DNA of 32,000 nucleotides, taken from positions 55,911 to 87,910 of the forward strand of contig NZ_VMQO03000001.1 of assembly GCF_009805595.3 (NCBI RefSeq), read 5' to 3'. The translations under genes and the position numbers were made by a program. Of the stretch, positions 10,236-31,938 are shown piece by piece (position 1 is the first letter of the stretch; each line of letters opens with the position of its first letter). A model generated the notes under the pieces. It did not search any database. It saw only the letters and a program-made list of their open reading frames with translations, and was not told the DNA's origin. The stretch is from Candidatus Tremblayella phenacoccinincola. GTDB lineage: Bacteria; Pseudomonadota; Gammaproteobacteria; Burkholderiales; Burkholderiaceae.

Positions 10236-10304
10236 GGTTTCCCCCCCCTCCCCCAAAAAGAATAGTTTATTTAGCAGCTAATATATATGTTGGAATAATG
10301 GTTT

Positions 10305-11637: not shown

Positions 11638-13389
<1,752 letters not shown>

Positions 13390-13422
13390 TTGGGGGGGGG
13401 AGGGGAGGAGCTGTTAGTTTAA

Positions 13423-13505
13423 GATGAGGTGTCCGAGTGGTTTAAGGAGTATGTTTGGAAGACATATATACGTATGTATCGAGGGTTCGAATCCCTCTCT
13501 CATCG
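13423..13505 (+). tRNA. tRNA-Ser (anticodon GGA), long variable arm
   Basis: GATGAGGTGTCCGAGTGGTTTAAGGAGTATGTTTGGAAGACATATATACGTATGTATCGAGGGTTCGAATCCCTCTCTCATCG. Acceptor GATGAGG/TCTCATC, anticodon loop TTGGAAG, variable stem ATAC/GTAT, T-arm GAGGG-TTCGAAT-CCCTC. Confidence 0.85.
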
Positions 13506-13508
13506 GAT

Positions 13509-13531
13509 GCATCCGTAGCTCAGTTGGTTAG
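13509..13531 (+). pseudogene. 5' fragment (acceptor plus D-arm) of a tRNA-Arg(ACG)-like gene
   Basis: GCATCCGTAGCTCAGTTGGTTAG matches the first ~23 nt of E. coli argV-type tRNA (GCATCCGTAGCTCAGCTGGATAG). I could find no anticodon arm, T-arm or 3' acceptor downstream. Confidence 0.45.
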
Positions 13532-13636
13532 GTAGGATTGGTAGCTTCATCTTTCACTAATCATGAACATCTATATTGGGGGGGAACTACGCATTAACCG
13601 CTATGTATTCGTATGGGCTTCTCAGGTTTATAATAA

Positions 13637-14620
13637 ATGAGCTATAAGATCCCCTTAAACAAAACATTCCATCTGCCACATGCACATCCACACGGCATAG
13701 CAACAATAATGAACCACAACCTCAAGCTTCTTTTAGTTAAAGAAGTCCAGGAAAACCAAAGGATAGAAAGCTTTCTATCTTCAACACTAGGCGTCAGAAC
13801 TGCTAGAAGTTGGACGCATAAGAACCTGAGAACAGGTAGAGTAGGAATTAACAATAACAAAGTTAAAGTAGGCCATCGTATCAAAGCTGGAGACTGCATA
13901 GCTATTCAACAACCTAACTTAAACCTAAATAATACCTTAACAAACGAAACGCACCAACTGTGTATTATATTTGAGGACGAGTTCATAATAGCTGTTGAAA
14001 AAGATAACAATATTCCAGTGCATAAAGGAAAAACCTGCGCAGTCGTTAGTTTAATAGATTCGATACAGAAGAACAATAACAACAGTTCCATAAAGCTAGC
14101 ACATAGAATAGATCAACGTACGTCAGGCACAGTGATATTAGCAAAAACTAAACCAGCGTTGCTTAGCCTTCAAAGGCAGTTCGTAAAAAGCCAGGTGTTC
14201 AAGAAATACTATGCTAGTGTTGCAGGTTCCTGGTCTGATAAATGGACACAGATACAAGATATTAGAGCGCCCTTAACAAAAGAGCTAGACTCGTATACCA
14301 AGAAGGTTTTAGTCCATCGTTCAGGTTTTCCAGCGCATTCAATAATTCAATGCCTGAAAGTATGGAGAAGATACGCTTTACTTATCGTAAACCTAGAAAC
14401 AGGACGTACTCATCAAATTAGAATTCATTGTAGTCATTTGGGGTTTCCAGTTCTTGGAGATATTCGGTATGGTCGCCAACCTTTCTCAAGAACCAGGCTA
14501 ATGTTACATTCCACTGTTCTTTCGTTTAAACACCCAATATTAGGTTCAAGACTAAAGCTTCTTTCACCACCTCCTTTAAATTACACATTGTTTTTAAGAA
14601 CCCTAAACCTAAGGAATTAG
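13637..14620 (+). CDS. rluC: 23S rRNA pseudouridine synthase, RluA family (RluC-like)
   Basis: An S4-like N-terminus (QRIESFLSS...RTGRVGINNNKVKVGHRIKAGD), the catalytic region HRIDQRTSGTVILAK, and GRTHQIRIHCSHLGFPVLGDIRYG. The start may be an internal Met. Confidence 0.78.
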   Translation: MSYKIPLNKTFHLPHAHPHGIATIMNHNLKLLLVKEVQENQRIESFLSSTLGVRTARSWTHKNLRTGRVGINNNKVKVGHRIKAGDCIAIQQPNLNLNNTLTNETHQLCIIFEDEFIIAVEKDNNIPVHKGKTCAVVSLIDSIQKNNNNSSIKLAHRIDQRTSGTVILAKTKPALLSLQRQFVKSQVFKKYYASVAGSWSDKWTQIQDIRAPLTKELDSYTKKVLVHRSGFPAHSIIQCLKVWRRYALLIVNLETGRTHQIRIHCSHLGFPVLGDIRYGRQPFSRTRLMLHSTVLSFKHPILGSRLKLLSPPPLNYTLFLRTLNLRN

Positions 14621-14622
14621 CT

Positions 14623-14772
14623 ATGGCCGTACAAAAGAAAAAGAAGTCTCCATCTAAAAGAAATATGAAACGGCTTCAAAAGAAATGTAAACACCCCACA
14701 GTTTCTACTGCCAATAACTCCAAGACTCACTTACGTCACTACAGCTCCTCAGGTCTCTACAGATACAAATAG
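14623..14772 (+). CDS. rpmF: 50S ribosomal protein L32
   Basis: My translation is MAVQKKKKSPSKRNMKRLQKKCKHPTVSTANNSKTHLRHYSSSGLYRYK*. Compare E. coli MAVQQNKPTRSKRGMRRSH...HLRHH..DGYYRG. It is below the ORF-track size cut-off. Confidence 0.85.
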   Translation: MAVQKKKKSPSKRNMKRLQKKCKHPTVSTANNSKTHLRHYSSSGLYRYK

Positions 14773-14871
14773 CACTAGCATAAACTACTCCTAAAGCTGT
14801 GCATTTAACAAAAAGCGAACCGAGGTCATCCAACCTTTTCTCATCTTTTAACCTTAACATAGAGCATAGAG

Positions 14872-15888
14872 ATGTACAACGGATTCCTTAAAAGTACTAC
14901 CATCATTATAGAACATAATCATTCAACGTTCTGCTTTCCTTCAATGTACAAGCTTGGTAAAACATACGGAACTCTCATTAACTTCCTACCTTCCTTTCTA
15001 CAAGTGTCTTTAGTTTCAATACTAACCCTAAGCATTGGAAAAAGCCTCAACAACAAACACATCAGCCACTTAATACGATGGTTTCCTCTTTCTAGGAAAT
15101 ATACAAAGATCCCATTCGTTCACTCTAAAGTAACTATTCAAGATCTGTCTGGAGTTCCGTTATCTGCTTTCATTACTAATGCTACAACAAAAGTAAAACA
15201 ACTAAATGAAGTTAACATTCTTAGTAGGTCACATTCCTTATACTCAAGCTCTAATCCTAAAACTAACCATAAGTCTGTATCTATTCTATCTTGGAATATT
15301 AGACCCGAACATACAACAAAACACTCACGCAACAAAAAGCTTAATAACATACAGCTACTCTGTTCAGATTCAGAAATCGGTTCTAACGGATGTTCTACCA
15401 ATAACAATGGCATAGGCTTCAGTAGTTGGAGAACAAACAGCTTAGGTTCAGAAGCTAGTATGTTCATGTTAGAACAACCAACCAACCAACTAACCAACTC
15501 CAACCCTCACTTCACAGGCTACGTCGGAATGGAATTAGTTGGTAAAACCCAAAGTAACAGCTCATCAGTAGAACTAGCGTTAACAATTGCTGAGTCTTTA
15601 AGGAAAGCTAATCCATCTGGAAACATAGTAGAGCTCATTGGTAAAGAATCACATTGGTTAACACTCCAAGATAGGTTTATTGCCTCAGGATTAGTGTTGG
15701 AATATGGGACTTTATTTGGGGTTTTTGCCTTCAACAACAAAGCGTTTAACTACATACTGAACGCTGGTAAAGATAAAGATGAACCACTAGCACTAGCAAA
15801 GATTCTAAAAGCTCAGAGGTTATTTGGAGTTCCTGAAAGAAATGGCATACTATGTAGCAACCCTTTAACCGTAAATCTAAGCTGGTAA
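14872..15888 (+). pseudogene. acnA: N-terminal ~340 codons of aconitate hydratase A; degenerate, lacks the Fe-S ligand domains
   Basis: It is collinear with AcnA residues ~20-365. VTIQDLSGVPLSAF aligns with VLMQDFTGVPAVVDL. GSEASMFMLEQP aligns with GIEAEAAMLGQP. YVGMELVGK...VELALTIAESLRKANPSGNIVELIG aligns with [47 protein letters not shown] aligns with EYGATCGFFPID. AKILKAQRLF aligns with EKYAKAQGMW. DSHTTM is degraded to DSEIGS. The ORF stops where it collides with the trpG 3' end. Confidence 0.7.
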
Positions 15889-16467
15889 GAGCTTTTGATG
15901 TACACCAAAGACAAAGCTTCTCACCAACTGTTCTCCATGTTGCGAATATATGGATTCTGGGTGAAACTGCATGCCTTCTATTGGTAGCACTTTGTGTTTT
16001 ATTCCCATTATTTCTCCAGTTGGGGTCCATGCTGTAATAACTAAGGAGTCAGGTACAGAGCTTTTATCTATAACAAGTGAGTGATATCTAATAGCGTAGA
16101 AACCCTGGGTCACATTACTAAATATTCCTTTATTGCTGTGGTATATTTTACTAAGCTTCCCGTGCATTATGTTCTTGGATTTTAATACTACGCTACCAAA
16201 AGAAACTCCTATTAGCTGATGTCCTAAACAGATTCCCAAAAGTGGAATAACAGTATGTAACTGATTGAAAAGCTTCTTAACTGTTCTGAGATTTGATGGA
16301 GAACCTGGGCCTGGAGAAAAGCAAACGACAGTAGGATTCATTGCTAATAAGTCTCTGAAAGAAACCTCATTATTCCTAACCACACTGACAGCTTCTCCTA
16401 TTCTTCTGAAACAGGAAACCAAATTGAATGTAAATGAGTCTTGGTTATCTATCACTACTATCGTCAT
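15877..16467 (-). CDS. trpG: anthranilate synthase component II (glutamine amidotransferase), stand-alone
   Basis: VVIDNQDSFTFNL, SPGPG, GICLGHQ (catalytic Cys) and QFHPES. There is an ATGA start/stop overlap with trpE. Confidence 0.92.
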   Translation of the reverse strand: MTIVVIDNQDSFTFNLVSCFRRIGEAVSVVRNNEVSFRDLLAMNPTVVCFSPGPGSPSNLRTVKKLFNQLHTVIPLLGICLGHQLIGVSFGSVVLKSKNIMHGKLSKIYHSNKGIFSNVTQGFYAIRYHSLVIDKSSVPDSLVITAWTPTGEIMGIKHKVLPIEGMQFHPESIYSQHGEQLVRSFVFGVHQKLLPA

Positions 16468-17936
16468 ATATGGATAGTGCTTCCCCCTGCTATTTTATTA
16501 ATACAGCTTAGAATAGCAACCACTTTGTTTTCAGTTTCCTTAACTTCACCCACTGGCTTTGAATGAAATACTATTCCAGCCGCAGATTGTAGATAGGTTC
16601 GCTGTTTGTGGATAAGGCTTGTTCTTATGGTTATAGCAGTTTCGATGTCATTGGTTGAAATGTATCCGATTGTCCCTCCATAAAAGCTTCGCTTCATTGG
16701 TTCGAGCTTATCAATTATATCCATAGCTTTTAGTTTTGGGGTTCCTGTGACAGTACCAGCAGGAAAAGCAATCTTTAGTATATCCATGGTTGAGTTACGG
16801 TTTATCTTGCTTTTAACGGTGCTAACGATATGTTGAACGTGCGAGTATTTCTCAATGCTCATTAGATTAAAACAATATACGGAGTCATAAGTAGAAGCTA
16901 TGCCTAATTCGTTCCTTGCTAAATCAACCAGCATTACATGCTCAGCTATTTCTTTTAGATCACTTCTTAGCATAGCTTCAAACCTTAAGTCTTCGTTAAC
17001 AGTCCTTCCTCTAGGTCGGGTTCCGGCTATAGGTTTGATAATTGTAAGGTAACCTTGTCTTTGAGTTGTTTGTTTAATCTGTATTTCAGGGGAGATACCT
17101 AGTACATCGAAGAAGCCATATCTTAACAAGAACATATACGGCGAAGGGTTAATTGCCTTCAAGCTCTTGAAGAACTGTAAGACATCAAACCTGGCTTGTT
17201 TAACAAACCTTCTGCTAACTTGTACTTGCATTAGTTTACCTTTATGTATGTATGTAACAGCCTTTGTTACTAAACCTAAATACTTCGTACGTACAAGGGT
17301 AGTGAAACCTTTCTTGGCTATACGCTTAAGAAATATTAGAGTTCTTGATGGTGTTACATATATTATTTTAACGACACACCTCAGCTTCCTAAGGTTTAAA
17401 AAGTACTGACTAGAAAATAGACCACAGTTGCTTTTCAGTTGTATTGATGTTTGATAAGTTAATACAAGAGCTTTTGTTAAATACATCATTACATCAGGCA
17501 CACCGATTGAATCTTTTTTATTAAATAGGTCTGTACGCTTCCTAAAATATCTAAACAGGTCGTATCCAAAGTAACCAAAGCATCCAAAGTCAGATACAAA
17601 ATGGCCGTGTTTAGTACTTTTGATATTGGTGTTAATAAGGTTGTTTTTCAGAAATGCATGAGGTTCTCCAAAAGACTTTCTAACGAGCTTATTAAGGAAA
17701 TAAAGACTGTTTGTGGTTTCACGGTGTTCAATTGTTACCCTGTTGAAAACTCCAATGAATGAACGGGCGTGTTTAACTTCAAATATATAGCTATTGGCAT
17801 CACTAAAAGAAATGCTGGTTCTACAATAGGTTTTTAGTAAACTCATGCTATATCCTGTTACAATTCCTAACATCGGGATGCAATAATGACCCGCTGTTAC
17901 AGCCTTTTCTCTATCTACTACGAAATAGTTCAACAT
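16464..17936 (-). CDS. trpE: anthranilate synthase component I
   Basis: [36 protein letters not shown] and the [16 protein letters not shown]...SFYGGTIGY chorismate-binding signature. Confidence 0.92.
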
Positions 17937-18037
17937 TTGTTAAGATATTAGGTTAACATACTTCCTATCTGTAGCATAGCTAATAAAACTCCGTCTTTTA
18001 TTGGTTGTTCTTCTATAGGTATTCTCAGTCTAAGCAA

Positions 18038-18102
18038 GCCAGTAGTAAAAGCCAGTAGTAAAAGCCAGTAGTAAAAGCCAGTAGTAAAAGCCAGTAGTAA
18101 CA
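18038..18102. repeat. 13-bp tandem array, 5 units (gccagtagtaaaa x4 plus gccagtagtaaca)
   Basis: Read directly. It lies in the divergent trpE/thrB spacer. Confidence 0.95.
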
Positions 18103-18230
18103 TACTCTCCTATTCTTTAACACTATGGTTGTCTACATATTAACAACAATAACCCCGGAAAGGGAGGTTGGTGCAATGATAAATACCTGGGAAAACCCTA
18201 AGGAAAGCTTCAAGGTTTGTTAATGCCTAT

Positions 18231-19229
18231 ATGACAGTCTTTACTAGAGTGCCAAATGCTGTATTAACAGGCTGGTCTAATAAATATATGCTGGGTGCAT
18301 TGGAGAAGCTAACAGAAACTAAACTCGGAACTGAGAACAGCAACTTCTTTTTAACAACCGTACTGCGGAACCTAATTGTTACAATCTTTGAGAATGTGGA
18401 GAACCATGAACTACCTTTTTACTTGTGCTTTATGTATTTCTTGTCAGTTAACGGTGTCCCCGCTCCCATATTGAATAGCAATGTAGAAGAAATACCAGTT
18501 GTTCAGTGGAATGGTAAGCCAGTAGCAATAACTTTAAAGCTCATTGGAATTACTCAAGAAGAACCGGGGAACCCACATATGCTAGAAACAGGAAGAGCAT
18601 TAGCAACTTTGCACCACATTAGTAAAAAGCATACATTCTTCAATGCTCGAGCTTACAGTATTAGCTGGGTTAAAGATAAGATCTCCAGTTATGCATGCAT
18701 TGTTCCCTTTGGTAAAAGATATGTGTTTGAGTATAGGGCTTCAATGCAGTTGTTTTACTTCTTAGCGGTTGGCTATAAAAGGTTGGATGATGGAGCTTGT
18801 CATGGAGATCTATTTAAAGATAATGTGACCTTTGAACAGCTGTTTCATATGCATAGTCAGAGGCTAAGCGGATGTTTTGATTTCTATTTCTCAGGACAAG
18901 AAAAGCTGTTGGTTGATGTAGCCATAGCTTTAAACACTTGGTGTACATGTAGTAATGGAATTCTAAATGTGTACGATACTGTAAAGTTAATGCACTCATA
19001 CCAAGTTATTAAACCTCTGAAGCTCAGAGAAAAAAAGAAGCTGTTGGTTACGTTAGAAGTGATGGCCTTTAGGTTTTGGCTTTCAAGGGTTGGAGGCTTC
19101 TATAGGAAAAAGATAACAGATGCAATGAACCCATACGATCCTGACTGCTTTAGGTTTAGGTTTAGGTTAACAGCTAGAGAATTGTATTTGAAGTGTTATG
19201 GGAGTGTTTACCAAGATGGTTCATCATAG
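18231..19229 (+). CDS. thrB: homoserine kinase, type II (aminoglycoside-phosphotransferase/kinase fold)
   Basis: MTVFTRV...LGTENSNFFL, HGDLFKDNV and FRFWLSR match the Pseudomonas/betaproteobacterial ThrB type, not the GHMP-type enteric ThrB. Confidence 0.85.
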   Translation: MTVFTRVPNAVLTGWSNKYMLGALEKLTETKLGTENSNFFLTTVLRNLIVTIFENVENHELPFYLCFMYFLSVNGVPAPILNSNVEEIPVVQWNGKPVAITLKLIGITQEEPGNPHMLETGRALATLHHISKKHTFFNARAYSISWVKDKISSYACIVPFGKRYVFEYRASMQLFYFLAVGYKRLDDGACHGDLFKDNVTFEQLFHMHSQRLSGCFDFYFSGQEKLLVDVAIALNTWCTCSNGILNVYDTVKLMHSYQVIKPLKLREKKKLLVTLEVMAFRFWLSRVGGFYRKKITDAMNPYDPDCFRFRFRLTARELYLKCYGSVYQDGSS

Positions 19230-19240
19230 TATTGATGGCT

Positions 19241-19285
19241 TTTAGTGCTTTTAGTGCTTTTAGTGCTTTTAGTGCTTTTAGGTCT
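19241..19285. repeat. 9-bp tandem array, 5 units (tttagtgct x4 plus tttaggtct)
   Basis: Read directly, starting 12 nt after the thrB stop. Confidence 0.95.
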
Positions 19286-19435
19286 TTGGAGGGGGAATAG
19301 AAGTAGCTAATGGGTTCTACTCCAACTTCAACTGCTTTTCCTTAGCCTATAGAGACATAATAGACTATAGATACAATTCCAATATAGAATGCCTTTTCAA
19401 ACTACAATGAACTGCTGTTAGTGCTAAAACCTGTC

Positions 19436-19497
19436 TGTATACGAGAGGGGAGAGAGAAGCTCTTTAATAGCTATAGCTGTTAACTCTCTCCTCTCCT
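19436..19497 (+). repeat. repeat B copy 1 (at least 62 bp, identical to 31939-32000, direct); GA-arm/CT-arm hairpin
   Basis: tgtatacgagaggggagagagaagctctttaatagctatagctgttaactctctcctctcct occurs at both sites. 19443-19454 pairs with 19484-19495 (12 bp, one G:T). The loop contains the palindrome agctatagct (19469-19478). Confidence 0.9.
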
Positions 19498-20931
19498 ACC
19501 TTCTCCTAATAAACCAACCTTTAGAACCATAACTTGTTTAACGTGTGCAACACAAGGAAACATGAACCTCAACCTTCGAACACGCCTTTGTGTTAAGAAA
19601 CTGTATCGACTACCAATCATAGTTCGAAGTGAGTCTTTTAGCTTTAAAGCCTGGGCTGTCTCCAGAATAACCTTAACTTCCCTTATGGACTTGCTATGCT
19701 TTAACAGCAGGACAGTCTTTGCGCCATTGGCAGAATGGGTATCAAGCAGTAGTCCGCATCTTTTGAATAGATATTGAACTATCATTTGCCGTTCTGAACC
19801 AAACGTACTTTCAGCTGAAATGCCTAACCTCTTTATGGATCTGTAGCTAATGTACCTAAGTAACCTTACTAACCCAAAGTGATGTAATTGTTGAAATACT
19901 TTGAACACTATGTTTGAATTCCTATTTAAAACCTCTAAGAGTAAGCGTTCAAGGTTTGAAGCTTTTGATATGTCCATGCTTGGAGTGTTAGTAGCTAGCA
20001 GGCTGCTAGCATTTCTTACTTGGTAAGAACCAGCTTTGAAAAACTCTTCCAGTACGTTATTCTCGTTTGTCGCAATAATGATTCTTCTTATTGGTAAACC
20101 CATAGTTCTTGAAATGAAACCTGCAAAAGCATTTCCAAAGTTTCCAGATGGAATAAGATATGTTGTGTACTCTTTTGGAGCAATGGTTACTCGATAGTAA
20201 GAAATGAAATAATACGCAGTTTGGAAAAGCAAGCGAGCCCAATTTATAGAGTTGGCTGTTCCGTTGTTACTTCGCTCCCTACATAACAAGCGTTTAACAA
20301 TATCCTGACAGCAATCAAACTTACCGTTGATGCATATGTTAAATGCTTTCTTCGATAGGTGGCTGTACATCTGTTCTGCTTGATATTCGGAAATGCCTTT
20401 AAGTGGTGAGAAAACGAAAAGCCTTGAACGCTTGCAAAACTGAAAAGCTGTGCACGCCGAACTACCAGTGTCTCCAGAGGTGGCGCTAATAATGTTAACG
20501 TTGCTGTTACTACTGCCAACCATAAACTCAAAGAACGCACACAATAACTGCATGGCAATATCTTTGAATGAGAGAGAAGAACCATTAGATAACCGAAGTA
20601 TGTATATTGGAACGTTAGAGATTGGTGCAACCCCGACTGGACAAGAAGCTGAATGTCTGTTGTAGTAGCTTAAGGGAAACCTTTCGTTGTATACGGTCCT
20701 TACTAGCTTTCTTATAACTGAATACGGTACGTCACTGATGAACCATCTAAATATTCTAAAAGCCAACTCTTGGTATGTAAAGAACCTCCATAGACGCTCT
20801 TCAATATGCAAGCTTGAGTAAGAGGTTGGCACATATAAACCACCATCGCTAGCCAATCCCTTTAACAATACATTTAAGAAAGAACGTAACCTTTCTTCTT
20901 TGTTGGAACCTCTCGTCGAATGATATAGCAT
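19480..20931 (-). CDS. thrC: threonine synthase
   Basis: MLYHSTRGS...FLNVLLKGLASDGGLYVP matches the ThrC N-terminus, with PLP region SFKDIAMQ and SGDTGSS. I place the start at the ATG at 20931. The listed 20979 start is a TTG extension overlapping hom. The last ~6 codons and the stop lie in repeat B. Confidence 0.9.
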   Translation of the reverse strand: MLYHSTRGSNKEERLRSFLNVLLKGLASDGGLYVPTSYSSLHIEERLWRFFTYQELAFRIFRWFISDVPYSVIRKLVRTVYNERFPLSYYNRHSASCPVGVAPISNVPIYILRLSNGSSLSFKDIAMQLLCAFFEFMVGSSNSNVNIISATSGDTGSSACTAFQFCKRSRLFVFSPLKGISEYQAEQMYSHLSKKAFNICINGKFDCCQDIVKRLLCRERSNNGTANSINWARLLFQTAYYFISYYRVTIAPKEYTTYLIPSGNFGNAFAGFISRTMGLPIRRIIIATNENNVLEEFFKAGSYQVRNASSLLATNTPSMDISKASNLERLLLEVLNRNSNIVFKVFQQLHHFGLVRLLRYISYRSIKRLGISAESTFGSERQMIVQYLFKRCGLLLDTHSANGAKTVLLLKHSKSIREVKVILETAQALKLKDSLRTMIGSRYSFLTQRRVRRLRFMFPCVAHVKQVMVLKVGLLGEGRRGES

Positions 20932-20932
20932 T

Positions 20933-22153
20933 CTATAATAGTGTTCTATAGTTTGTGATGTAACCTCTGAAAGAGACAACAGTACGTTTGAAGTTTCTTT
21001 CGAAAACGTTTTTCAAGACCATAATAACTTCTAAACGTTTATACACTCCAAAAGCACTAAAAGATATTAAGTTAAGCTTTCTCTTTAAAAGAATGTTCAG
21101 AGTTTCTTTGCATTCTTGGAATGATGTATTTAAAGTACGAACATAGAAACCGTTTCTTGAAGTTGAAATGGATCTGTATGGGAGAGTTAAGATTCTTGTT
21201 GGATAAGAGGAATTCCCGTTCCCATAGCGAATAGATTCAACGTCTGAAATGATAGCTGAAGCTGTTGGCTTTGTGCCAGCTCCTTTACCAAATAACCACA
21301 ACTTACCAACACAGTCTCCAGCCACAAGTATAACATTAGTTGTGTCCTCAGAGATCCAGAAAGGCCAGCTAAGTGAAACAAAGCCTGGGAATGTGGCACA
21401 CAGAGCCTTCTTTATGGTTAAAACAACAGACATCAGTTTAAAGTTTAAGCCTAGTCTTTTACCATATGCAATATCCTGAAGGTTTACGTTTCTTATGCCT
21501 TCAGTATATATGTAACGAATAGTTACGGTTGTTCTTAAAGAAATGTAATATAGAATTCCTGTTTTCTGTGTCGAGTCTATCCCATCAATATCGCATACAT
21601 TGTCTGACTCAGCATAGCCTCTTTGAGATGCATCCAATAAAGCTCTTTTTAAAGAAACACCCAACCTATGCATTTGCGCTAAAGTCCAGTTGGAAGTGCC
21701 ATTCAAAACACCTGCCACATAGCTAATCATGTTTCCAACAAGCCCTTTCTCAAGAACACTTAGGATTGGAATGCCTCCTGCCACTGATGCTTCAAGCAAT
21801 ATGTTATTGTAGGTGTGTCTTAGTTCAAAGTTGTAACAGGCAATTAACGTTTTATTGGCTGTTACTAAAAACCTTTTTTTGTTTAAAGAATTGAACAATA
21901 TATATCGAGCAACACATGAACCTCCAACAGCTTCAACCAGTACATACATTCGGGGTTCATTTAGTGGAATCTTTTGCGTTGAGTTAACATTGATCTTTGT
22001 AGCTTTAGTTATTCTTCTGGTTAATATAACGGCTATTCTAAGATCTAAACCTAACCTGTTTCTGATTATGACACTATTCTTGTACATAGTTGACATAACT
22101 CCCCTCCCAACCGTTCCTAGTCCAAACAAGCATATGCAAGAAACCTTAGTCAT
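20933..22153 (-). CDS. hom: homoserine dehydrogenase (monofunctional)
   Basis: VSCICLFGLGTVGRGV (NAD fold) and NGTSNW. It is followed, after a 1-nt gap, by thrC. The ATG at 22153 is preferred over the TTG at 22162. Confidence 0.88.
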   Translation of the reverse strand: MTKVSCICLFGLGTVGRGVMSTMYKNSVIIRNRLGLDLRIAVILTRRITKATKINVNSTQKIPLNEPRMYVLVEAVGGSCVARYILFNSLNKKRFLVTANKTLIACYNFELRHTYNNILLEASVAGGIPILSVLEKGLVGNMISYVAGVLNGTSNWTLAQMHRLGVSLKRALLDASQRGYAESDNVCDIDGIDSTQKTGILYYISLRTTVTIRYIYTEGIRNVNLQDIAYGKRLGLNFKLMSVVLTIKKALCATFPGFVSLSWPFWISEDTTNVILVAGDCVGKLWLFGKGAGTKPTASAIISDVESIRYGNGNSSYPTRILTLPYRSISTSRNGFYVRTLNTSFQECKETLNILLKRKLNLISFSAFGVYKRLEVIMVLKNVFERNFKRTVVSFRGYITNYRTLL

Positions 22154-22339
22154 GTTCCTCAATGTCTAACTAGACGAATGTGCGGTTGTTATTGAATCTG
22201 TGGTTAAATAATGAATTCAATAGTGATCTCAGCCACAGCTAAACTATTGGGGTTTGTTCGAGATAACCCGTTCTACTTCTTTTGTCTTCTATACATTCCA
22301 TATTATCCCGGCTTTTGTGGATTCTCTTCTAACTGGTTG

Positions 22340-22753
22340 CTATGGTTGTCTAAGAATCTTGATGCATACATTGACTGCAACGTGGTTAGTTATTGTTATT
22401 TTAACGAAGTGTTCACCTAGTCTCCTAAATACGGTAGGCATGTAGAGTTGATCTCTCCAAACGTAAACATTAAACTTCCTTAATAGAAAAAGAACGTCAG
22501 TTTCTTTAACGGACTCAAACAGTTCACCATTATCTTTAGCTGTTCTCATATAAAGTAAGTAAGATGGAAATCTGTAGGGTTGGTCAATAAGAAACATGTG
22601 GTCGATATCTTTATTCGGACTTATTACTTGTATATTGAAAGGTGTTGTATATTTGTGAGGTAACAGAAGGTTTCTAGCATAACCGTTTTTAACGTACACA
22701 ACGGCTCCTATGACTCCAAGATTTCTTAGGTTTTCTAGTAGGATTACTTTCAT
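22340..22753 (-). CDS. rplI: 50S ribosomal protein L9
   Basis: [32 protein letters not shown] matches the L9 N-domain. ATGA overlap with rpsR. Confidence 0.88.
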
Positions 22754-23037
22754 TGGTTTCTATTCGGTTCTTTGTTTATTAAATGCAAGCTGGTGTAGGG
22801 AAGTAATGAAAGAAACCTTGCTCGTTTGATTGCAGTACTTAACTGCCTTTGGAACCGAGTCTCAGTACCTGTTAGTCTTGAAGGAGTGATTTTACCGAAG
22901 CTAGTGACGAAAGCTCTTAGAGTTTTAATGTCTTTGTAGTCTATATGTTTGAATTTGGAACAGGTGAAGTAGCAAGCTTTCTTCTTTAATGTTACCCCGT
23001 TCTTAACATTGGTTGTGGGTTTAGGTTGCTTTTTCAT
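22750..23037 (-). CDS. rpsR: 30S ribosomal protein S18
   Basis: [48 protein letters not shown]. Confidence 0.9.
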
Positions 23038-23387
23038 TCTTTTTGCTCTTGTGAAAGGTTATCGTTTTCTATGGACTTTATAAACGCTGACTTGCAGGTT
23101 GGTTTGTATTTACGCTTCACAATAAGATACCTTAATAACATACGACAATGTTTGAGTTTAGTGGTTAGCTTAGCTAAAGAATCACAAGAGCATTCGATGT
23201 TCATACAGTAAAAATAAGCTGTGGAGTTGTTTTTAATGGCATAAGAAAGGTTTTGTTTGCCCCAACATTCATACCGATGCACCAAACCACCTACAGAAAG
23301 AACAGTTCCACTCAACTCTCTGAAAAAAGAAACCGACTCCTTATTGTTTACTGCGTCCATTAGATATACTATTTCGTAATGACTCAC
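23034..23387 (-). CDS. rpsF: 30S ribosomal protein S6
   Basis: [10 protein letters not shown]...[16 protein letters not shown] compares with E. coli MRHYEIVFMV...IHRLEDWGRRQLAYPI. Confidence 0.9.
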
Positions 23388-23596
23388 TTTGATATACGCT
23401 CTTCCAGTTGTTAATTGAGGTTTAGATATTGATGGGGGGCTTTTTAAGGGGAACCTACTATAGCATAACCGAACGTTCTGCTTTTAGCTTTGAATCATTT
23501 TGGTTTATAACAGCTTTAATTGGTTCCCCTCCCATACAAACCCAACGATGTTCCTAGCTAATATTCTTTACCAACTATTCCTAACTGAGTTCTTCA

Positions 23597-24670
23597 TTAG
23601 AAACCCAACGTTAGCTTTATAGGATCTTCTAAAGATTCTTTAACTGTTCTTAAGAAAGAAACAGCATCTTTGCCATCTATCAATCTGTGGTCGTAGGATA
23701 ATGCTAAATATATCATAGGTTTAACTTCTACTTTATCGAACAAAACAATGGGACGCTGCTCAATTGAATGAATTCCTAATATTGAAGATTGAGGTGGGTT
23801 TATTACTGGTGTTGATAACAAAGATCCAAATATGCCTCCGTTAGAAACTGTGAACGTGCCTCCACTTAGCTCTTCAATAGTAATCCTGTTGTGCATTGCT
23901 TTTGTCATAAAGTTAGAGATATTCTTTTCAATTGTATGTATGCTCATTCTTTCAGCGTTTCTTAGAGTTGGAACAATTAACCCAAGTGGGGAATTTATAG
24001 CTATACCGATATCTTGAAACTCATGATACACTATAGAATCGTCTTTGACTGAAGCATTCAGGATAGGATATTTCTTCAGTGCAATTGAGGAAGCTTTTAC
24101 GAAAAAGCTGGTTAAACCTAACTTAACGCCATGCTTTTTGGTAAACTCAACCTTGTACTTTTCTCGAAGCTTAATGACTGAACTCATATTTACTTCATTG
24201 AAAGTGGTAAGAGTTACACTTGCTTTTTGAGCTCGAAGTAACCGTTGGATTAAGCTCTTTCGTAATACAGACAAAGCTACGTATCTTTCTATTCTGTGGT
24301 TTCTTGTCTGATTGCAAAAGGAAGTATGAGTTGCTTTTGTATTTAAGCTAAGGTTGTTTGTATTTCTCAGTCTTTCGGTAGTTCGCATATAGGTGTCAGA
24401 AGAGGTTGGTTTAGCAGAAAAGCTTTTAGTTTCTATTACTGCCAGAGTTTGACCACTGTGCACTACTTCTTTTTCAGGAACCTTAATTATCTTAATCAGT
24501 CCATTAACTTCAGAAGGAACATCTAAAACAACTTTGTCTGTCTCCAACTCAAGCAGGCTATCTCCCTTCTTAACATATTGTCCTTCATGCTTTCTCCATT
24601 TTAGAACAACAGCTTCTGATACAGACTCTGCAAACTGTGGAGCTTTAACTTCAATCTCGGTAGTATCCAT
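23597..24670 (-). CDS. sucB: 2-oxoglutarate dehydrogenase E2 (dihydrolipoyl succinyltransferase)
   Basis: A single lipoyl domain ([15 protein letters not shown]) and catalytic SYDHRLIDG. Confidence 0.92.
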
Positions 24671-27212
24671 ATTTATCCCTCTTTAACCGAATGTTGAAAG
24701 CATTGCTAGTAACGAAGTGACTTTGAAACCTGAACTCAACATCAAATCCTAATGCGGTTGAAGCAGAGCTTTGAACACCACAATAAACAACTCTATTCTT
24801 AACCACGTAGCGAATATATGGTTCAATGAAATACCATATTCCCTGATTCTTAGGTTCATCTTGTACACTCAAAACCTCACAGATTGATATGTATTGTTTT
24901 GGTATACAATGCTTAGGAAATGGATACAGCTGCTCCAGCCTGATAATAGAGATCCTGTTAATACTAAACCTGTGTTGATAGGCTGCTAGTTGGAAATAGA
25001 TCTTCCCTGAACATAACAGCAGTCTCCTTAAGTGTTCATACCTTACATTGTACTTCTCCTCCACAATAGTCTTCCTAAACCTATTAGCTGTGAAGTCAGA
25101 GATGGTAGACCAAGAAGCCTTAAGTCTAAGTAAGGACTTAGGGGTTAATATTGTTAATGGTCTTTTAACTTTCCTTGACGTCTGTTCAAGAATGACATGA
25201 AATAGCTGCGCAGAAGTGGTAGGATGTACAACCGTAATATTATTGCTTGAGCATAGTTGCAAAAGCCTCTCAAGTCTTGCAGATGAGTGCTCTGAACCCT
25301 GACCTTCCTGACCATGCGGAAGATATAACACTATGTTTGAACTCTGACCCCACTTAGAACCACCAGAAGCAATAAACTGATCAAGCAGGACCTGCGCACA
25401 GTTGATAAAATCTCCGAACTGCGCTTCCCAGATCACCATCGCATAAGACTTAACCAATGAATAACCGTACTCAAAACCTAGAACTGAGCCTTCGGACAGT
25501 GGAGTATTTATAATATGTATTCTACCTTGAAGTGACGATATGTTTTGTAAAGGAGTATAAGCTGGAATACCTTGAAAACTCTGATTATAAACTACTGCAT
25601 TTCTGTGCATAAAGGTTCCTCTTGAAACATCTTGGCCTGATAACCTTATTGGAATTCCTTTGTTTAAGACTAAAGCATAAGCTAAATGTTCACTGGAATT
25701 CCAGTCTAGAGAAGCGCTTGTTTCTATTACCAGGTGTCTGTTTAAGAAGCTACGTTTTAAGAGTGGATGGAGACTAAACAATTGAGGAAGCCTAACTAAC
25801 TTACCTAGCAACCATTTAAGTTCTTCTGTTAAAGCTATACAATTGCTGTTAACTCTGATGCTTTTGAAGATATGTATTTTTCTTATGCGTGGTTGCACTG
25901 GCTTTTGGGTTTCTAAAGAGACTAGGTAATGCTTTCTTACTTTTAAAAAGGTTTCGGTTGTGGCTGGTTCCTCGTTTGATATGAACTGTAGGTAAGTCAG
26001 GTTGATGGGCTTGTGTGCTTTTATAGAACTGTACATAAGAGGTTGTGTTATTTCTGGAGTGTCTTGTTCATTGTGACCCAACCTCCTAAATGCAATGATA
26101 TCTAAGACTACGCTTTTTAGAAACTTCATTCTAAACATTAGCGCAAGCTTTGAAATAAGAACCACAGAGTCTGGGTTGTTTCCATTCACATGAAATACCG
26201 GCGCTCCTATTGTTTTGAGATGTTCGGTGCAAAAGGTAGTAGAACGAGTTTCTTTAGGTTGAGCCGTAAATCCTATTTGATTGTTAATGACTATATGAAT
26301 TGACCCATATGTTCTGTATTGTTTAATGCCTGAAAAGTTTATAGCTTCGGACACAACTCCTTGTCCTGTTATTGCCGCATCTCCATGTATCTGAATTGGA
26401 AGGACATATTCATTCTTTTTCTTAGGTGTGTTTATAGTATTTAGTTTAGCTTTTGAGATGCCTTCAACTATTGGGTTAACTGATTCTAGGTGTGAAGGGT
26501 TATAGACCATTGTTAGCTTTAAACTATTCTTATGGACCATACGGGACACACAGCCAAAGTGATATTTAACATCAAAGCTTTGAATATAGTCTTCTTTGTG
26601 TTGAAGCGAATGTACAAAGAATCTGTTTGTTGCTTCGTGATATAGGTTAATTAATATGTTAAGTCTTCCCCGATGTGCCATACCAACTACGATATCTGTA
26701 ATCTTCGACTTGGACGCAAGGCTTATTAGGGAGCTTAATAGGACAACAACAACCTCGGAGCCTTCAATAGAAAACCTCTTCTGACCTACATACGTCTTAG
26801 CAAGGAGATTCTCCAGTTCATATGCTTTCGTTAGAATAAATAAGATACTTTTCTTTACGTCTAGGTTCAAGCTTAATCTATTCAGTACGGGTCTTTCTAA
26901 AGTGCGGTGTATCCACAAGCGTTTAATGCTATTTATATGAGAAACTTCAGGATATATTCCATGGCAATAAGAGCTTCTCAGAAAACCTAAAGCTAACACA
27001 TTTGGAAACAAGTCTTTGCTGTTTAATGGTTCTAAGTTCCTAAGTGTGTTATTGAAGCCTCTGTACAGCTCTATTGTTCTGTTAGCGTTATACATTTTGG
27101 AAACGTCTGAGAAATAGATATTCCAACAGCCAGAGAGCGAATGTGGGTTATTAGTATATTTACGATACAGTAACTCAATGTATTTTATATTTTCAATGGA
27201 AGAGTCGGTCAT
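24651..27212 (-). CDS. sucA: 2-oxoglutarate dehydrogenase E1
   Basis: [46 protein letters not shown] and WEAQFGDF. Its 3' end overlaps the sucB start by 20 nt. Confidence 0.92.
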
Positions 27213-27290
27213 TAAGTTAAGCTGGGTTTATTAGATGCGTATGGTTGAAACGTGAACTTGCGATACAAGCTCGCATAGGCTTATGAGTCT

Positions 27291-27620
27291 TTAATGGGGG
27301 GGGGGAGTTGTTTTAACAAGCTCTTCGGTTGGTATAAAAGTGAGCTTTGGGGTATCTTTTAGGTTTACTCTTGCATACAGTGTTCTACATATTGTTTTGG
27401 AATAAAGAGCTAGTATTCTTGCTACGTTGCTTTTATTACCAAATAAACTAGAGAAGCTAACAATAAGTCTTTTACGGTCTTTGGATAAGATTATTCTCTG
27501 TGCAGTTATAATATTGTCCCTTAATTCTTCGGTGTGTGTTAGGATATTTAATAACTCGTACTTTAGCCTGCTAATGCTTCTTTTGTAAGAGTGAGCCCTC
27601 TTTTTATGTTCAAATGTCAT
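27291..27620 (-). CDS. rbfA: ribosome-binding factor A
   Basis: It sits immediately after infB. The RbfA-like pattern is present (R..R....L..EL..IL......D...........S.D...A.V.....TP.L.F). The C-terminus runs into a C10 tract (TTPPPH*). Confidence 0.82.
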   Translation of the reverse strand: MTFEHKKRAHSYKRSISRLKYELLNILTHTEELRDNIITAQRIILSKDRKRLIVSFSSLFGNKSNVARILALYSKTICRTLYARVNLKDTPKLTFIPTEELVKTTPPPH

Positions 27621-27631
27621 CAGAAACTAAG

Positions 27632-29149
27632 CTAAAAGAAAACCTCAAGCATGTCACCAACATATAGTTCTTGTAGGGTTTTTAGCACTACCAAAACTCC
27701 GCACTCAGAACCCCTCTTAACTTCTTCTACTGGAGTTTTAAAAAGTTTTAAAGTACGAACCTCGCATATTCCAACTTCCTTACCGTTTCTTGAAACTATG
27801 GTGCTTTTCGATCTTTTCAAAACACCAGCTTCTACTATGCAACCTAAAATTGCTTCGTTGCCTGAAACATTAAAGACTCGCTTAACTGTTGCTTTTGCTT
27901 GTGGTTTGTCCCTGCTTTCAGGCTTTGATTGAAAACCAACAGACCGTAAGTCTTCTGCTAGCTCATACACAGTTCGAAAGCTTTTAATAATAACTTTGCG
28001 TTCTTTGGATAGCTTTAGGATTCTGGAATTAGGTTTTATTCCTAATGTGATGATAACTGCTCCAGATATGGCAGCCATCCCTATGTCACTTTCGTACACT
28101 AAACCTACGCTTTTGTGGATCACTTTTGCTGGTATGTTGTTTGGTATGTTGTTAATGGTATTAACAGCAGCTTCAATCATTCCATAAGTCCTTGACTTAA
28201 CGATGTAGCGAAAGCTGTTATTGTCAGTGGTTCTTAACATATCGAACATGGTTTTTATGTTAACACACTCAGGCTCTTCAGGTTTATTATTCAATATGCA
28301 TTTGCGCTGTGTTGCAAGGTCTTTGGCAGCTTGTTCTGTTGGCACTACTATGAACTTAGCACCTGGTTTAGACGGAGTAGGTAAGCCGTAAATGTTAGCC
28401 GGTGTAGCTAGTGACACTCTTTCTATACGTTTGTTATGTTCATCGTATGCTAGTCTAACTCTACCGTAGTCACTGTTAAGTAAAACTATGTCTCCGAGGT
28501 TAAGAGAACCAGCCTGAACTAATATAGTTGTGCATATGCCCATAGTTGGAGTTACTACTGAATTAATAACTGTTCCTCTTGCTGGTATATTAACTAGTGT
28601 CTTTAGCTTATGTGAAAGCTTTGTTCTTTTGGCTTCTACATGGATTGAAGTCATCAGGTTTGGCACACCTATTCCCTTCTTGGCTGATAAATACACCAAC
28701 TTCGAGCCATCAGCGTTTAGTTTAGACTTGCTGTCAAGGCTTGAGAATATGTTTTTAACATTGGGTCTTTTGTCTATCTTATTAATTCCTAATACAACTG
28801 GTTTTCCAATAGCTTTAACGTTGGTTAATATCTTTTTGCATTCTTCAGTAACACCATCATCTATCGCAATTAGAATAACTACAATATCTGCTAGTTTTAC
28901 CCCATAGTTTCTAGTCAGTTCAAATGTTACGTGGCCTGGAGTATCAACAAATATTAGTTTTCCAATTGGAGGTGTGATGGAGCTGTATGCGAAGATATCT
29001 TGTGTTATTCCTCCAGCTTCGTAGTTAGAAGAATCAGCATTCCTTATACGTTCTATAAGTGTAGTCTTTCCATGATCTACGTGACCTACAATAGCAACAA
29101 CCAAGGCTCTTTTACCTATTCTGTTTATGCTTTCGTTTATGTTCTCCAT
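27632..29149 (-). CDS. infB: translation initiation factor IF-2, minimal form (G domain to C2 only)
   Basis: VVAIVGHVDHGKTTLIERIR, GGITQDI, VDTPGH and NKIDK. At 505 aa the long N-terminal region of enteric IF2 is absent. Confidence 0.92.
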   Translation of the reverse strand: MENINESINRIGKRALVVAIVGHVDHGKTTLIERIRNADSSNYEAGGITQDIFAYSSITPPIGKLIFVDTPGHVTFELTRNYGVKLADIVVILIAIDDGVTEECKKILTNVKAIGKPVVLGINKIDKRPNVKNIFSSLDSKSKLNADGSKLVYLSAKKGIGVPNLMTSIHVEAKRTKLSHKLKTLVNIPARGTVINSVVTPTMGICTTILVQAGSLNLGDIVLLNSDYGRVRLAYDEHNKRIERVSLATPANIYGLPTPSKPGAKFIVVPTEQAAKDLATQRKCILNNKPEEPECVNIKTMFDMLRTTDNNSFRYIVKSRTYGMIEAAVNTINNIPNNIPAKVIHKSVGLVYESDIGMAAISGAVIITLGIKPNSRILKLSKERKVIIKSFRTVYELAEDLRSVGFQSKPESRDKPQAKATVKRVFNVSGNEAILGCIVEAGVLKRSKSTIVSRNGKEVGICEVRTLKLFKTPVEEVKRGSECGVLVVLKTLQELYVGDMLEVFF

Positions 29150-29288
29150 TAGCTTGAGTAGGTTTCTTAAAATGACAGGTGTTAAGAACTATATTAGTAA
29201 ATGCTCAGCTTCTTAAGAGACAATATGCAAGCTGTTTGAGGGTTCTGCCAAGATGTGGAGAGGGTGTGTGTGAAGAGGAGGAGGAGCT

Positions 29289-29310
29289 GGAAGGTAAAGC
29301 TAGGAAGGGG
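29289..29310. repeat. inverted-repeat core, left arm (ggaaggtaaagctaggaagggg)
   Basis: 21/22 match to the reverse complement of 29812-29833. It is embedded in a C-poor GA/GT-rich tract, about 29240-29520. Confidence 0.7.
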
Positions 29311-29612
29311 TTTGAGAGGAGGAAGAGTGTTTAGGTTTGTCTCTGTGTTGATGAAGAAGAAGGTTGATGATGGTGGAAGAGAAGGAGGGTGTGAGGGAGT
29401 TGGAAATAAATGTGTGTGAAAGACTGGGAGTGTGTGAGAGAAGAGGAGAATGAGAGAGGAGAATGGTAGGAGAAGAAGATGGGTATAGAAGATGGGTATA
29501 GAAGAAGAGAGATATAATAGGAAGCTCTTTCCCCAACAGGTGGTATGTCCATGCCTATAGCTGCACGCATTAGAACCTAGAACTACCAGGTATTTCATAG
29601 TGAAGACAACAG

Positions 29613-29669
29613 CCATAAACATAACCATAAGCATAACTTCAACTAAACGAATTAATGGTGAAGCCTCAA
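29613..29669 (+). repeat. repeat A copy 2 (57 bp, a duplicate of the infC 5' coding end, no gene attached)
   Basis: 57/57 identity to 996-1052. It has 2 rather than 3 copies of the 12-bp unit. It diverges immediately after ...gaagcctcaa. Confidence 0.9.
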
Positions 29670-29811
29670 TCAAAACCTTCCCCTTCTCTCCCTCCCCCCA
29701 AAACCTATAACAAGTCCTTCCTTTCCTTTCCTTTCCTTTCTACCTCTTTACTACTCTTCCTTTTCCCCCCAGGCTTCCCCCTCAACACATCCAATACATT
29801 TTACCTTCTTT

Positions 29812-29833
29812 CCCCTTCCTACCTTTACCTTCC
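29812..29833. repeat. inverted-repeat core, right arm (ccccttcctacctttaccttcc)
   Basis: Reverse complement ggaaggtaaaggtaggaagggg, compared with 29289-29310. It is embedded in a G-poor CT-rich tract, about 29670-29850. Confidence 0.7.
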
Positions 29834-29971
29834 CCCCCAATAGCACCACCAAATACCTTCAACACAACCCTGCGTTAAAAGTATAAACTAATATCAATAA
29901 CCCTCAGCTTTTCCCACAAAGCCAACCAATGTACAACCTCTTAGTTCGTTAACTCAGCTGGTAGACCCACT

Positions 29972-31147
29972 ATGAAACCAACCTTTAAGCTTAGACTACC
30001 GGTGTATCTGGATTATAACTCTACTACGCCAGCTGATTCTAGAGTGGTGGACAAAATGCTACCATTCCTCAGACACAAGTTTGGCAACCCAGCCTCACGT
30101 TCACATATCTTAGGCTGGGAGGCTGAAGCTGCTGTAGAAAAAGCTAGAGAGTTCGTTGCTAGTTTAATCAAAGCTTCCAGTAAAGAAATTGTATGGACCT
30201 CAGGTGCAACTGAATCTAATAACTTAGCAATTAAAACCATCGCTCTTTCAAACCTTAACAAAGGAAGACATGTTATTACTCTAAAAACTGAACACAAAGC
30301 CGTCCTTGACACCTGTAGATACTTGGAATCAAAAGGCTTCATTGTTTCCTATTTAGCAGTTAACAACAATGGTTTGTTAGACCTAAACCTACTGAACAAA
30401 TGCATACAGCCTGATACCATCCTTGTAGTCATAATGTATGTTAACCATGAAATAGGGGTAATTCAGAATATAGAAAGCATAAGTAGCTTATGTTCAAGCT
30501 ATGGAATTCCGCTTCATGTTGATGCAGCGCAAGCAGTTGGTAAAGTATCAATAAATACCTCCAAGACTCAGATCAACACCATGTCTTTAACATCTCACAA
30601 AGCCTATGGACCCAAAGGAGTAGGGGCTTTGTATGTTAACAAGGCTAATGTATTTAAGATTGAACCTCAGATGCATGGTGGTGGTCAAGAGAAAGGCGTA
30701 CGTTCTGGAACTCTTCCAACACATCAAATAGTAGGAATGGGTGAAGCGTATCGGTTGATATACAACGAAGGCTTATCAGAGTTTAAGACCACAAAGCAGC
30801 TAAATGTTCATTTGGTTAAGGAATTAGTATCTATTGTTCAAGTAAACGTTAACGGAAGTTTAACATCTCGAATTCCACACAATATCAACATTAACATAAA
30901 GTATGTAGAAGGAGAAGCATTGATGATGTCGATGAAGAATGTTTGTGTTTCTTCAGGCTCTGCATGTACTTCTTCAGCTTTACAACCCTCATACATATTG
31001 CAAGCGATAGGCTGTATTCAAAACGTCCACAACTCTATTAGGTTCTCTCTAGGACGTTTCACTTTAGCTTCTGAGGTTGAATATGTGTCACAGGCTGTTA
31101 TAGAAAAGATTAAAAGATTAAGACAGCTTTCACCACTTTGGAGTTAA
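29972..31147 (+). CDS. iscS: cysteine desulfurase IscS
   Basis: LPVYLDYNSTTP, FGNPASRSH, TSGATESNNLAIK, SHKAYGPKG (PLP Lys) and SSGSACTS (active Cys). Confidence 0.93.
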   Translation: MKPTFKLRLPVYLDYNSTTPADSRVVDKMLPFLRHKFGNPASRSHILGWEAEAAVEKAREFVASLIKASSKEIVWTSGATESNNLAIKTIALSNLNKGRHVITLKTEHKAVLDTCRYLESKGFIVSYLAVNNNGLLDLNLLNKCIQPDTILVVIMYVNHEIGVIQNIESISSLCSSYGIPLHVDAAQAVGKVSINTSKTQINTMSLTSHKAYGPKGVGALYVNKANVFKIEPQMHGGGQEKGVRSGTLPTHQIVGMGEAYRLIYNEGLSEFKTTKQLNVHLVKELVSIVQVNVNGSLTSRIPHNININIKYVEGEALMMSMKNVCVSSGSACTSSALQPSYILQAIGCIQNVHNSIRFSLGRFTLASEVEYVSQAVIEKIKRLRQLSPLWS

Positions 31148-31148
31148 A

Positions 31149-31547
31149 ATGCTGTATAGTAAAAAGGTTTTACGTTATTATCACAGCAACAAAAATGTAG
31201 GCTCTTTCCCAGAAGGTGAAAACAACATTGGCACTGGGGTGGTTGGTTCGCCTTCATGTGGAGATGTTTTGAAGTTACAGCTAAAGATTGAGAATGGAGT
31301 TATTGTTGGTGCAAAATATAAAACTTACGGCTGTGGTTCAGCTATTGCTTCAAGTGCCTTGGTCGCTGAGTTAGTACAAGGAAAAACCCTAGAGCAAGCA
31401 ATGGCCATCAAGAATATAGAGATAATTAATGAATTGGGTCTACCCCCAATTAAAACACATTGTTCGGTTTTGGCAGAGAATGCAATTAAGACAGCCATTA
31501 CAAACTTCTATACAACAAACCCTAAAGATAAACCTAAAGCTAATTAA
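31149..31547 (+). CDS. iscU: Fe-S cluster scaffold IscU
   Basis: GSPSCGDVLKLQ, YKTYGCGSAIASS and PPIKTHCSVLAE. Confidence 0.93.
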   Translation: MLYSKKVLRYYHSNKNVGSFPEGENNIGTGVVGSPSCGDVLKLQLKIENGVIVGAKYKTYGCGSAIASSALVAELVQGKTLEQAMAIKNIEIINELGLPPIKTHCSVLAENAIKTAITNFYTTNPKDKPKAN

Positions 31548-31553
31548 GAAATA

Positions 31554-31877: not shown

Positions 31878-31938
31878 CTGTTAAAGGTTAGTTGAGTAGT
31901 TTATTAGGGTTTTATTATTATTATTTGGATGATATGTG

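Follow-up and report, generated by a model that had tools for sequence, protein, structure and literature searches.

Why does a short palindromic sequence occur in two identical copies, one at each border of a block of core genes, in the genome of an obligate insect symbiont, and does it act at the ends of transcripts or at the junctions of the genome itself? Where obligate insect symbionts have genomes of about 200 kb, these are normally static and lack repeats. The beta/gamma chimeric strains of Tremblaya phenacola are a rare exception to this stasis, and their genomes have resisted closure. An abstract by Gil et al. from 2018 is said to report the failure to assemble the genome of strain PPER, the same point that is made in a review from the same group. 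According to that review, closure of the PPER genome failed even with Nanopore reads (PMC6463088). The genome of strain PSOL amounts to 221.1 kb in seven contigs with 34.8% GC, and its closure was prevented by repeats at the contig flanks (PMC11014885). In these publications, the repeats of PPER and PSOL are described as blocking closure and as supporting coexisting genome arrangements (Gil et al. 2018 via PMC6463088; PMC11014885).

The DNA analysed here, referred to as the window, is a stretch of 32,000 nucleotides that probably derives from Ca. Tremblaya phenacola strain PSOL (Phenacoccus solenopsis). A sequence-only reading of the window had drawn attention to a perfect direct repeat, repeat B, and had interpreted it as a portable hairpin at gene ends. 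Here, the extent, fold and position of this repeat are described, and the explanations for its two copies are weighed against each other.

Gene content of the window

In the right half of the window, trpG and trpE on the minus strand are followed by a thrB-type homoserine kinase gene on the plus strand and by the first copy of repeat B. Beyond it lie thrC, hom, rplI, rpsR, rpsF, sucB, sucA, rbfA and infB, all on the minus strand, a spacer of 822 nt, and then iscS, iscU and iscA on the plus strand, 61 nt and the second copy of repeat B. The two direct copies bracket a block of approximately 12.5 kb, of which thrC (threonine synthase; 19480-20979, minus strand) is the first gene and iscA (31554-31877, plus strand) the last.

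The GC content per kb varies between 27% and 42% and is mostly 29-39%, with a step from ~27-34% over roughly 2-13 kb to ~35-42% past 13 kb. This step may reflect the gamma- and beta-derived parts of the chimeric genome. The GC values, the mixture of beta and gamma genes and the published account of PSOL jointly make this strain the probable source of the window. Furthermore, the window contains an apparent gene fragment at 2151-2567, which is a C-terminal piece of a TP_methylase (rsmI-like), and an apparent fragment at 14872-15888, an open reading frame that is matched only over part of the aconitase (leuC-like) domain and that overlaps the end of trpG.

Identity, extent and number of the copies

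The two copies of repeat B (19436-19497 and 31939-32000) are in direct orientation, 12,503 bp apart, and identical at 62 of 62 positions. Extension by four nucleotides to the left adds one mismatch (19432-19497 against 31935-32000, 65/66), and the flanks left of 19432 and 31935 are unrelated to each other. A search of the window with a 61-nt pattern of the repeat, allowing up to three mismatches, returned these two sites only, while none were expected from 100 shuffles, which rules out a chance origin of the pair. The perfect identity that had been read from the letters is confirmed by these results, as is the truncation of the second copy, since it reaches position 32000 and has its right border outside the window. 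The distance of 61 nt between iscA and the second copy is likewise correct, with iscA ending at 31877 and the perfect copy beginning at 31939.

The first copy is taken here as 19432-19503, with identity to the second over 19432-19497; positions 19498-19503 form the rest of a PSOL-specific sequence that precedes the restart of homology to PPER thrC at 19504. The second copy covers 31935-32000 and starts 57-61 nt past the iscA stop codon, depending on whether the imperfect left extension is counted. The repeat begins with TGTCTGTATAC and contains stop codons in five of its six frames. Within the 32 kb window the copy number is two, and searches with blastn-short and with up to three mismatches in the window, in PPER contigs 12 and 15 and in the outgroup PAVE yielded only chance-level matches of at most 12 nt in addition. 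No counterpart of the repeat is present in the 24 kb of PPER and the 21 kb of PAVE that were compared. Exact matches were also absent from genome and metagenome contig collections, which do not include the source-strain contig. Judged from these comparisons, repeat B is most likely a lineage-specific, short, dispersed palindromic repeat with a unit of about 63-72 bp.

Fold of repeat B

The outer stem of repeat B is formed by a GA arm, GAGAGGGGAGAG (19443-19454), that pairs with a CT arm, CTCTCTCCTCTC (19484-19495), over 12 bp including one G:T pair. The GA arm is in itself a perfect 12-nt mirror repeat, and the CT arm, read on the minus strand, contributes codons to the thrC tail. Between its arms the outer stem leaves 29 nt, and it consists of GA and CT rather than being GC-rich. 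These 29 nt had been described as a loop containing a palindrome. The palindrome AGCTATAGCT (19469-19478) is indeed there, but the loop is not unstructured, as it holds a second stem of 8 bp in which TTAATAGC (19464-19471) pairs with GCTGTTAA (19476-19483) around a TATA loop. The inner-stem segment (19464-19483) also includes the thrC stop codon, which reads TTA on the plus strand at 19480-19482. Due to this inner stem and to the ability of GTA/TAC (19437-39/19497-99) to close the outer stem, the palindromic unit can be placed at approximately 19437-19499.

The predicted RNA fold of 19432-19503 has a minimum free energy of -27.3 kcal/mol on the plus strand (z -3.2, with none of 200 shuffles as good) and of -23.4 kcal/mol on the minus strand (z -2.1). 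Folding with DNA parameters gives z values of -2.9 and -1.8. Only one fold was more stable than those of the two copies in a scan of all 70-nt windows on both strands (n=12,774; mean -8.6, sd 3.9 kcal/mol), in which the copies take ranks two and three. The pairing of the arms proposed before is thus borne out. The most stable 70-nt fold of the whole window lies elsewhere, at 3071-3140 on the minus strand in the spacer between tRNA-Asp and gltX (-30.4 kcal/mol), and has no match in Rfam.

Position at gene ends

Both copies of repeat B are located at the 3' ends of genes, and copy 1 lies between the convergent genes thrB (plus strand) and thrC (minus strand). Together with stop codons in five of six frames and with a fold that is stable on either strand and belongs to the three most stable of the 12,774 windows, this placement would suit a functional RNA hairpin at gene ends. 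Such a hairpin would be either a terminator lacking a U-tract or a REP-like element that stabilises the 3' ends of the thrC, thrB and iscA transcripts, and its usefulness would be the reason for its duplication. The remaining evidence makes such a function distinctly unlikely. A T/U tract is missing on both strands: the sequence that follows the stem is CTTCTCCTAATAAACC on the plus strand and AGACAGGTTTTAGC on the minus strand, with no U-run 3' of the stem in either. This agrees with the statement in the sequence-only reading that repeat B is not a canonical intrinsic terminator, and a scan for terminators detected no terminator-like site at the repeat. Such sites are not enriched over 13000-32000 in general, where seven were found compared to 11.2 expected from shuffles. 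At the Rfam gathering threshold, the window contains three tRNAs only and no match at repeat B.

Furthermore, the sequences that follow thrC, iscA and thrB in PPER do not fold with unusual stability (z +0.7, -0.6 and -0.6, respectively), so no conserved requirement for a hairpin at these gene ends is visible, and the repeat itself is without a counterpart in the 24 kb of PPER or the 21 kb of PAVE. A gene-end function is also not easily reconciled with the occurrence of only two copies in the window, nor with a perfect identity over at least 62 nt, which exceeds what the function of a hairpin would need. The notion of a portable bidirectional gene-end hairpin, with which the repeat was first described, is therefore not supported by the PPER folds and the terminator counts.

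The thrC terminus

The last seven codons and the stop codon of thrC lie inside copy 1. The encoded protein is 100% identical to Ca. Tremblaya phenacola protein WP_159128904.1 / KAH0998351.1 and 85% identical to the PPER enzyme, and the two differ at the C-terminus: after a common ...LLG, the PPER protein ends in LLGC*, whereas that of the window ends in LLGEGRRGES*, with TAA at 19480-19482. At the DNA level, the 3' end of the gene reads TTA TTA GGA TGT TAG in PPER and TTA TTA GGA GAA GGT AGG AGA GGA GAG AGT TAA in PSOL. Among 13 aligned threonine synthases, the EGRRGES tail was found in PSOL alone. Relative to PPER, the 18 nt that encode EGRRGE (19486-19503, minus strand) form a PSOL-specific in-frame extension.

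Two readings of this terminus can be put forward. It is possible that repeat B replaced the last thrC codon together with the stop codon. Alternatively, 19486-19503 may be an in-frame GA insertion of 18 nt, with the stop codon and the loop representing the ancestral flank of thrC. The loop and stop of the repeat resemble the PPER thrC flank weakly, as 70 of 5000 shuffles equal the resemblance, a count that is uncorrected for the choice of offset. The claim that the repeat supplies the thrC stop can be kept in part: the element does carry the PSOL-specific tail and the stop codon, but "supplying" is uncertain, as the stop may belong to the ancestral flank. Under either reading, the alignments place the tail past the conserved end of the enzyme and mark it as lineage-specific. 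In this respect, thrC shows that the C-terminus of a protein can be rewritten by recombination or insertion at the end of its gene and that this need not do any evident harm.

Gene order in PPER and PAVE

The 12,272-bp contig 15 of PPER (MKGN01000015.1) contains the block from iscA to thrC and no other genes, and ends 306 nt beyond iscA and 225 nt beyond thrC. In blastn comparisons it shows collinear homology to the window from 19504 to 31882 only, at 85-87% in the long segments, while its flanks outside the block are unrelated to the window. The module thrC-hom-rplI-rpsR-rpsF-sucB-sucA-rbfA-infB / iscS-iscU-iscA (19504-31882, 12.4 kb) is thus collinear in both strains. On the other side of the repeat, collinearity between PPER contig 12 (L004) and the window begins at ileS and extends over trpE and thrB up to position 19412. 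The last part of this homology is a post-thrB spacer segment, 19358-19412, which is 91% identical over 55 nt to 11064-11117 of contig 12 and directly to the right of which collinearity breaks. The identity of this segment is higher than that of the surrounding spacer and also than that of the long coding-region alignments (85-87%). In PPER, thrB is followed by tRNA-Met(CAU) and tRNA-Leu(GAG) on the minus strand (11186-11374 of contig 12) in place of thrC.

Since homology to PPER stops at 19412 and restarts within thrC at 19504, the break in collinearity between PSOL and PPER is confined to 19413-19503, an interval that consists of 19 unique nucleotides and the first copy of repeat B. In PPER, contigs end at both borders of the bracketed block. 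For repeats at these positions in PPER, the contig breaks are indirect evidence only, and in the sequence examined, no terminal repeat is shared by the two ends of contig 15 or by contigs 12 and 15, and contig 15 ends without overlap. In the outgroup PAVE, a beta-only genome, thrC is followed by the convergent rpmE and by argH, a third arrangement. Because PAVE has rpmE at this position, the junction downstream of thrC differs in all three genomes (PSOL, PPER and PAVE). Neither the location of copy 1 on the synteny break nor the bracketing of a block that is separate in PPER was part of the sequence-only reading. Taken together, the position of copy 1 on a synteny breakpoint and the separate state of the block in PPER point to recombination rather than to transcription.

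Other repeats and tracts of the window

Among the spacers of the window, the only other long dispersed repeat is repeat A, a perfect direct repeat of 57 nt (996-1052 and 29613-29669) that is interleaved with repeat B in the order A1-B1-A2-B2. The first copy of repeat A contains a CATAAC/CATAAA microsatellite and the beginning of infC, with its annotated ATT start (1034) and first six codons, and the second copy lies in the infB-iscS spacer, which is expanded specifically in PSOL.

Repeat A, which copies a gene end (the infC start), lends some weight to the thought that the second copy of repeat B belongs to a longer duplication, segmental or tandem, of the thrC 3' end or of the whole block, of which the window shows just the edge and which continues beyond 32000. 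The truncation of copy 2 at the end of the window would be in line with this, and so would the weak resemblance of loop and stop to the PPER thrC flank (70/5000 shuffles as good); in that case copy 1 would be the original, from which the thrC end was copied to the site of copy 2. A related concern is that the pair is an artefact of a repeat-rich hybrid assembly, given that the assembly is fragmented at repeats. We consider these explanations rather unlikely. The palindrome closes at 19437/19499 and the PSOL-specific sequence ends at 19503, so a self-contained and nearly complete unit is the simpler account compared to a longer duplication, and the independent breaks between PPER contigs at both borders of the block suggest a real biological feature rather than an artefact.

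In the window block, GA/CT tracts account for 28 bases per kb, compared to 2.4 in PPER contig 15. PSOL-specific tandem arrays that are missing from PPER also occur in spacers, for example a perfect array of five copies of the 9-mer GCTTTTAGT at 19229-19287, directly 3' of thrB. Other perfect arrays consist of five copies of a 13-mer upstream of thrB (18036-18100) and of the 7-mer TTCTCTA between gltX and ileS (4795-4838). The divergent infB/iscS spacer (29150-29971) measures 822 nt compared to 310 nt in PPER and is composed of a purine-rich half (~29240-29520) followed by a pyrimidine-rich half (~29676-29838), an order by which both 5' leaders are pyrimidine-rich on the sense strand. This GA-rich/CT-rich spacer was considered as a larger version of the repeat B hairpin and rejected, as its fold is no better than that of shuffles (z 0.02).

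Although the genome is AT-rich, tracts resembling G- or C-homopolymers are found at or near gene ends (13392-13410, 27296-27307, 2601-2617, 4957-4969 and 10238-10254), examples being G9AG4AGGAG after ligA and a G10 that encodes the PPP tail of rbfA (minus strand). Furthermore, the 14-mer ATCTAATAAACCCA occurs at 3197-3210 and, inverted, at 27223-27236, in both cases just upstream of a start codon on the sense strand (gltX and sucA, respectively).

Possible role of repeat B in recombination

Repeat B consists of identical direct copies with a palindromic fold, the first of which sits at a break in gene order, and the module between them is separate in PPER, where the element is absent from the 24 kb compared. 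It shares with recombinogenic dispersed repeats the presence of at least two identical copies of tens of bp at separate loci and the coincidence with a rearrangement breakpoint and with contig ends in PPER. As in att-type systems, identical direct repeats flank a block that is missing from that site in the relative PPER. Due to its identity, direct orientation, location at the breakpoint, bracketing of the module and absence in relatives, repeat B fits the class of recombining repeats. Other features of the window agree with this: repeat A is likewise perfect, overlaps a gene end and is interleaved with repeat B, tandem arrays missing from PPER have been acquired in PSOL spacers, and GA/CT tracts are more frequent in the block than in PPER contig 15. 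We infer, with confidence and doubt about evenly balanced, that repeat B is a junction repeat which marks where the thrC-iscA module recombines in a recombination-prone chimeric genome, and which probably also mediates this recombination.

An insertion without any such recombination would be the alternative if repeat B were a non-autonomous mobile palindromic element, of the MITE, REP or RPE-like type, that has inserted at the 3' end of thrC and downstream of iscA. The compact imperfect palindrome with sharp borders (left at 19432-19436, right at or before 19503), its PSOL-specific insertion relative to PPER and its overlap with a coding end, as in Rickettsia palindromic elements, are features of this kind. 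We nevertheless hold this origin to be very unlikely: no transposase or RAYT gene is found among the open reading frames of the window, the inverted repeats are internal (19443-54 / 19484-95) instead of terminal, only two copies are present in 32 kb, and exact matches are absent from the genome and metagenome collections. Furthermore, transposition leaves the position on the synteny break and the bracketing of the module unexplained.

If repeat B is a junction repeat, its copies would have arisen by recombination or template-switch repair at the site, or would be kept identical through these processes. In such a process, a circular module could have been integrated or excised in the Campbell manner, or one border could have been copied to the other. 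The direct copies may still recombine, in which case the module would be looped out as a 12.5-kb circle or re-integrated, and such events would add to the coexisting genome arrangements reported for the lineage. The palindrome and the polypurine/polypyrimidine mirror tract are plausibly fragile via fork stalling or via cruciform or H-DNA formation, and this fragility would explain why a junction formed at repeat B. The six or seven non-conserved residues added to the thrC product would then be a tolerated side effect and have no function.

A more far-reaching version holds that the thrC-iscA block is a mobile module that is repeatedly integrated and released by recombination at repeat B, its free form being a 12.5-kb subgenomic circle on which the palindrome would lie between the convergent iscA and thrC and serve both as the recombination site and as a shared gene-end hairpin. 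This version is speculative and probably does not hold; if true, it would provide a defined, sequence-level module junction for the multipartite dynamics that are suspected in chimeric Tremblaya phenacola. The junction reading and its rivals are not mutually exclusive, as a junction between convergent genes could also affect the 3' ends of RNAs.

Comparison with known systems

Like a Rho-independent terminator, repeat B forms a stable stem-loop directly after a stop codon and between convergent genes, but it lacks a U-tract on either strand, and its 12-bp GA/CT stem encloses a large interior that is itself structured. It also resembles the REP/BIME elements of Enterobacteria, which are short imperfect palindromes at the 3' ends of genes that can fold in RNA. 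REP/BIME elements are extragenic and occur in hundreds of copies, whereas two copies of repeat B are visible in the 32 kb of the window, one of which covers the last seven thrC codons. In addition, REP/BIME elements have a GTAG head and an associated RAYT (TnpA_REP), while repeat B starts with a different sequence, is about twice as long as is usual for them, and is not accompanied by such an open reading frame in the window.

The attL/attR repeats of integrated elements are similar in that a discrete block, separate in a relative, lies between identical direct repeats, and one border in PPER adjoins tRNA genes. Unlike in these systems, no integrase is found in the window, the block consists of core housekeeping genes and repeat B does not lie within a tRNA gene.

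Parallels are also seen with the recombining repeats of Portiera and of plant mitochondria. Repeats in direct, inverted and tandem arrangement occur in the unstable Portiera genomes of Aleurolobini whiteflies (Sloan and Moran 2013; PMC7821994). Like PSOL, Portiera has the tiny genome of an obligate symbiont, in which spacers are enlarged, microsatellite or tandem arrays and dispersed repeats are present, and gene order is rearranged compared with sister strains. Portiera is a different bacterium, and for repeat B recombination is a prediction from the sequence.

The closest counterparts are the repeats of T. phenacola PPER and PSOL, which belong to the same lineage and are, like repeat B, identical repeats in spacers that are found at contig breaks or sites of gene-order change and that bracket modules. 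A counterpart of repeat B itself is missing from the 24 kb of PPER compared, and PMC6463088 and PMC11014885 mention neither this particular element nor its palindromic GA/CT structure or overlap with thrC. Repeats that fragment and rearrange the genomes of T. phenacola are thus known, and repeat B is a small addition to a reported phenomenon; new are the palindromic element itself, its mapping to a breakpoint and the rewriting of the thrC terminus. A repeat that is tied to a breakpoint and to both borders of a module offers a concrete target, which could show whether the genomes of these strains are made up of subgenomic molecules that recombine with each other, and how such junctions form.
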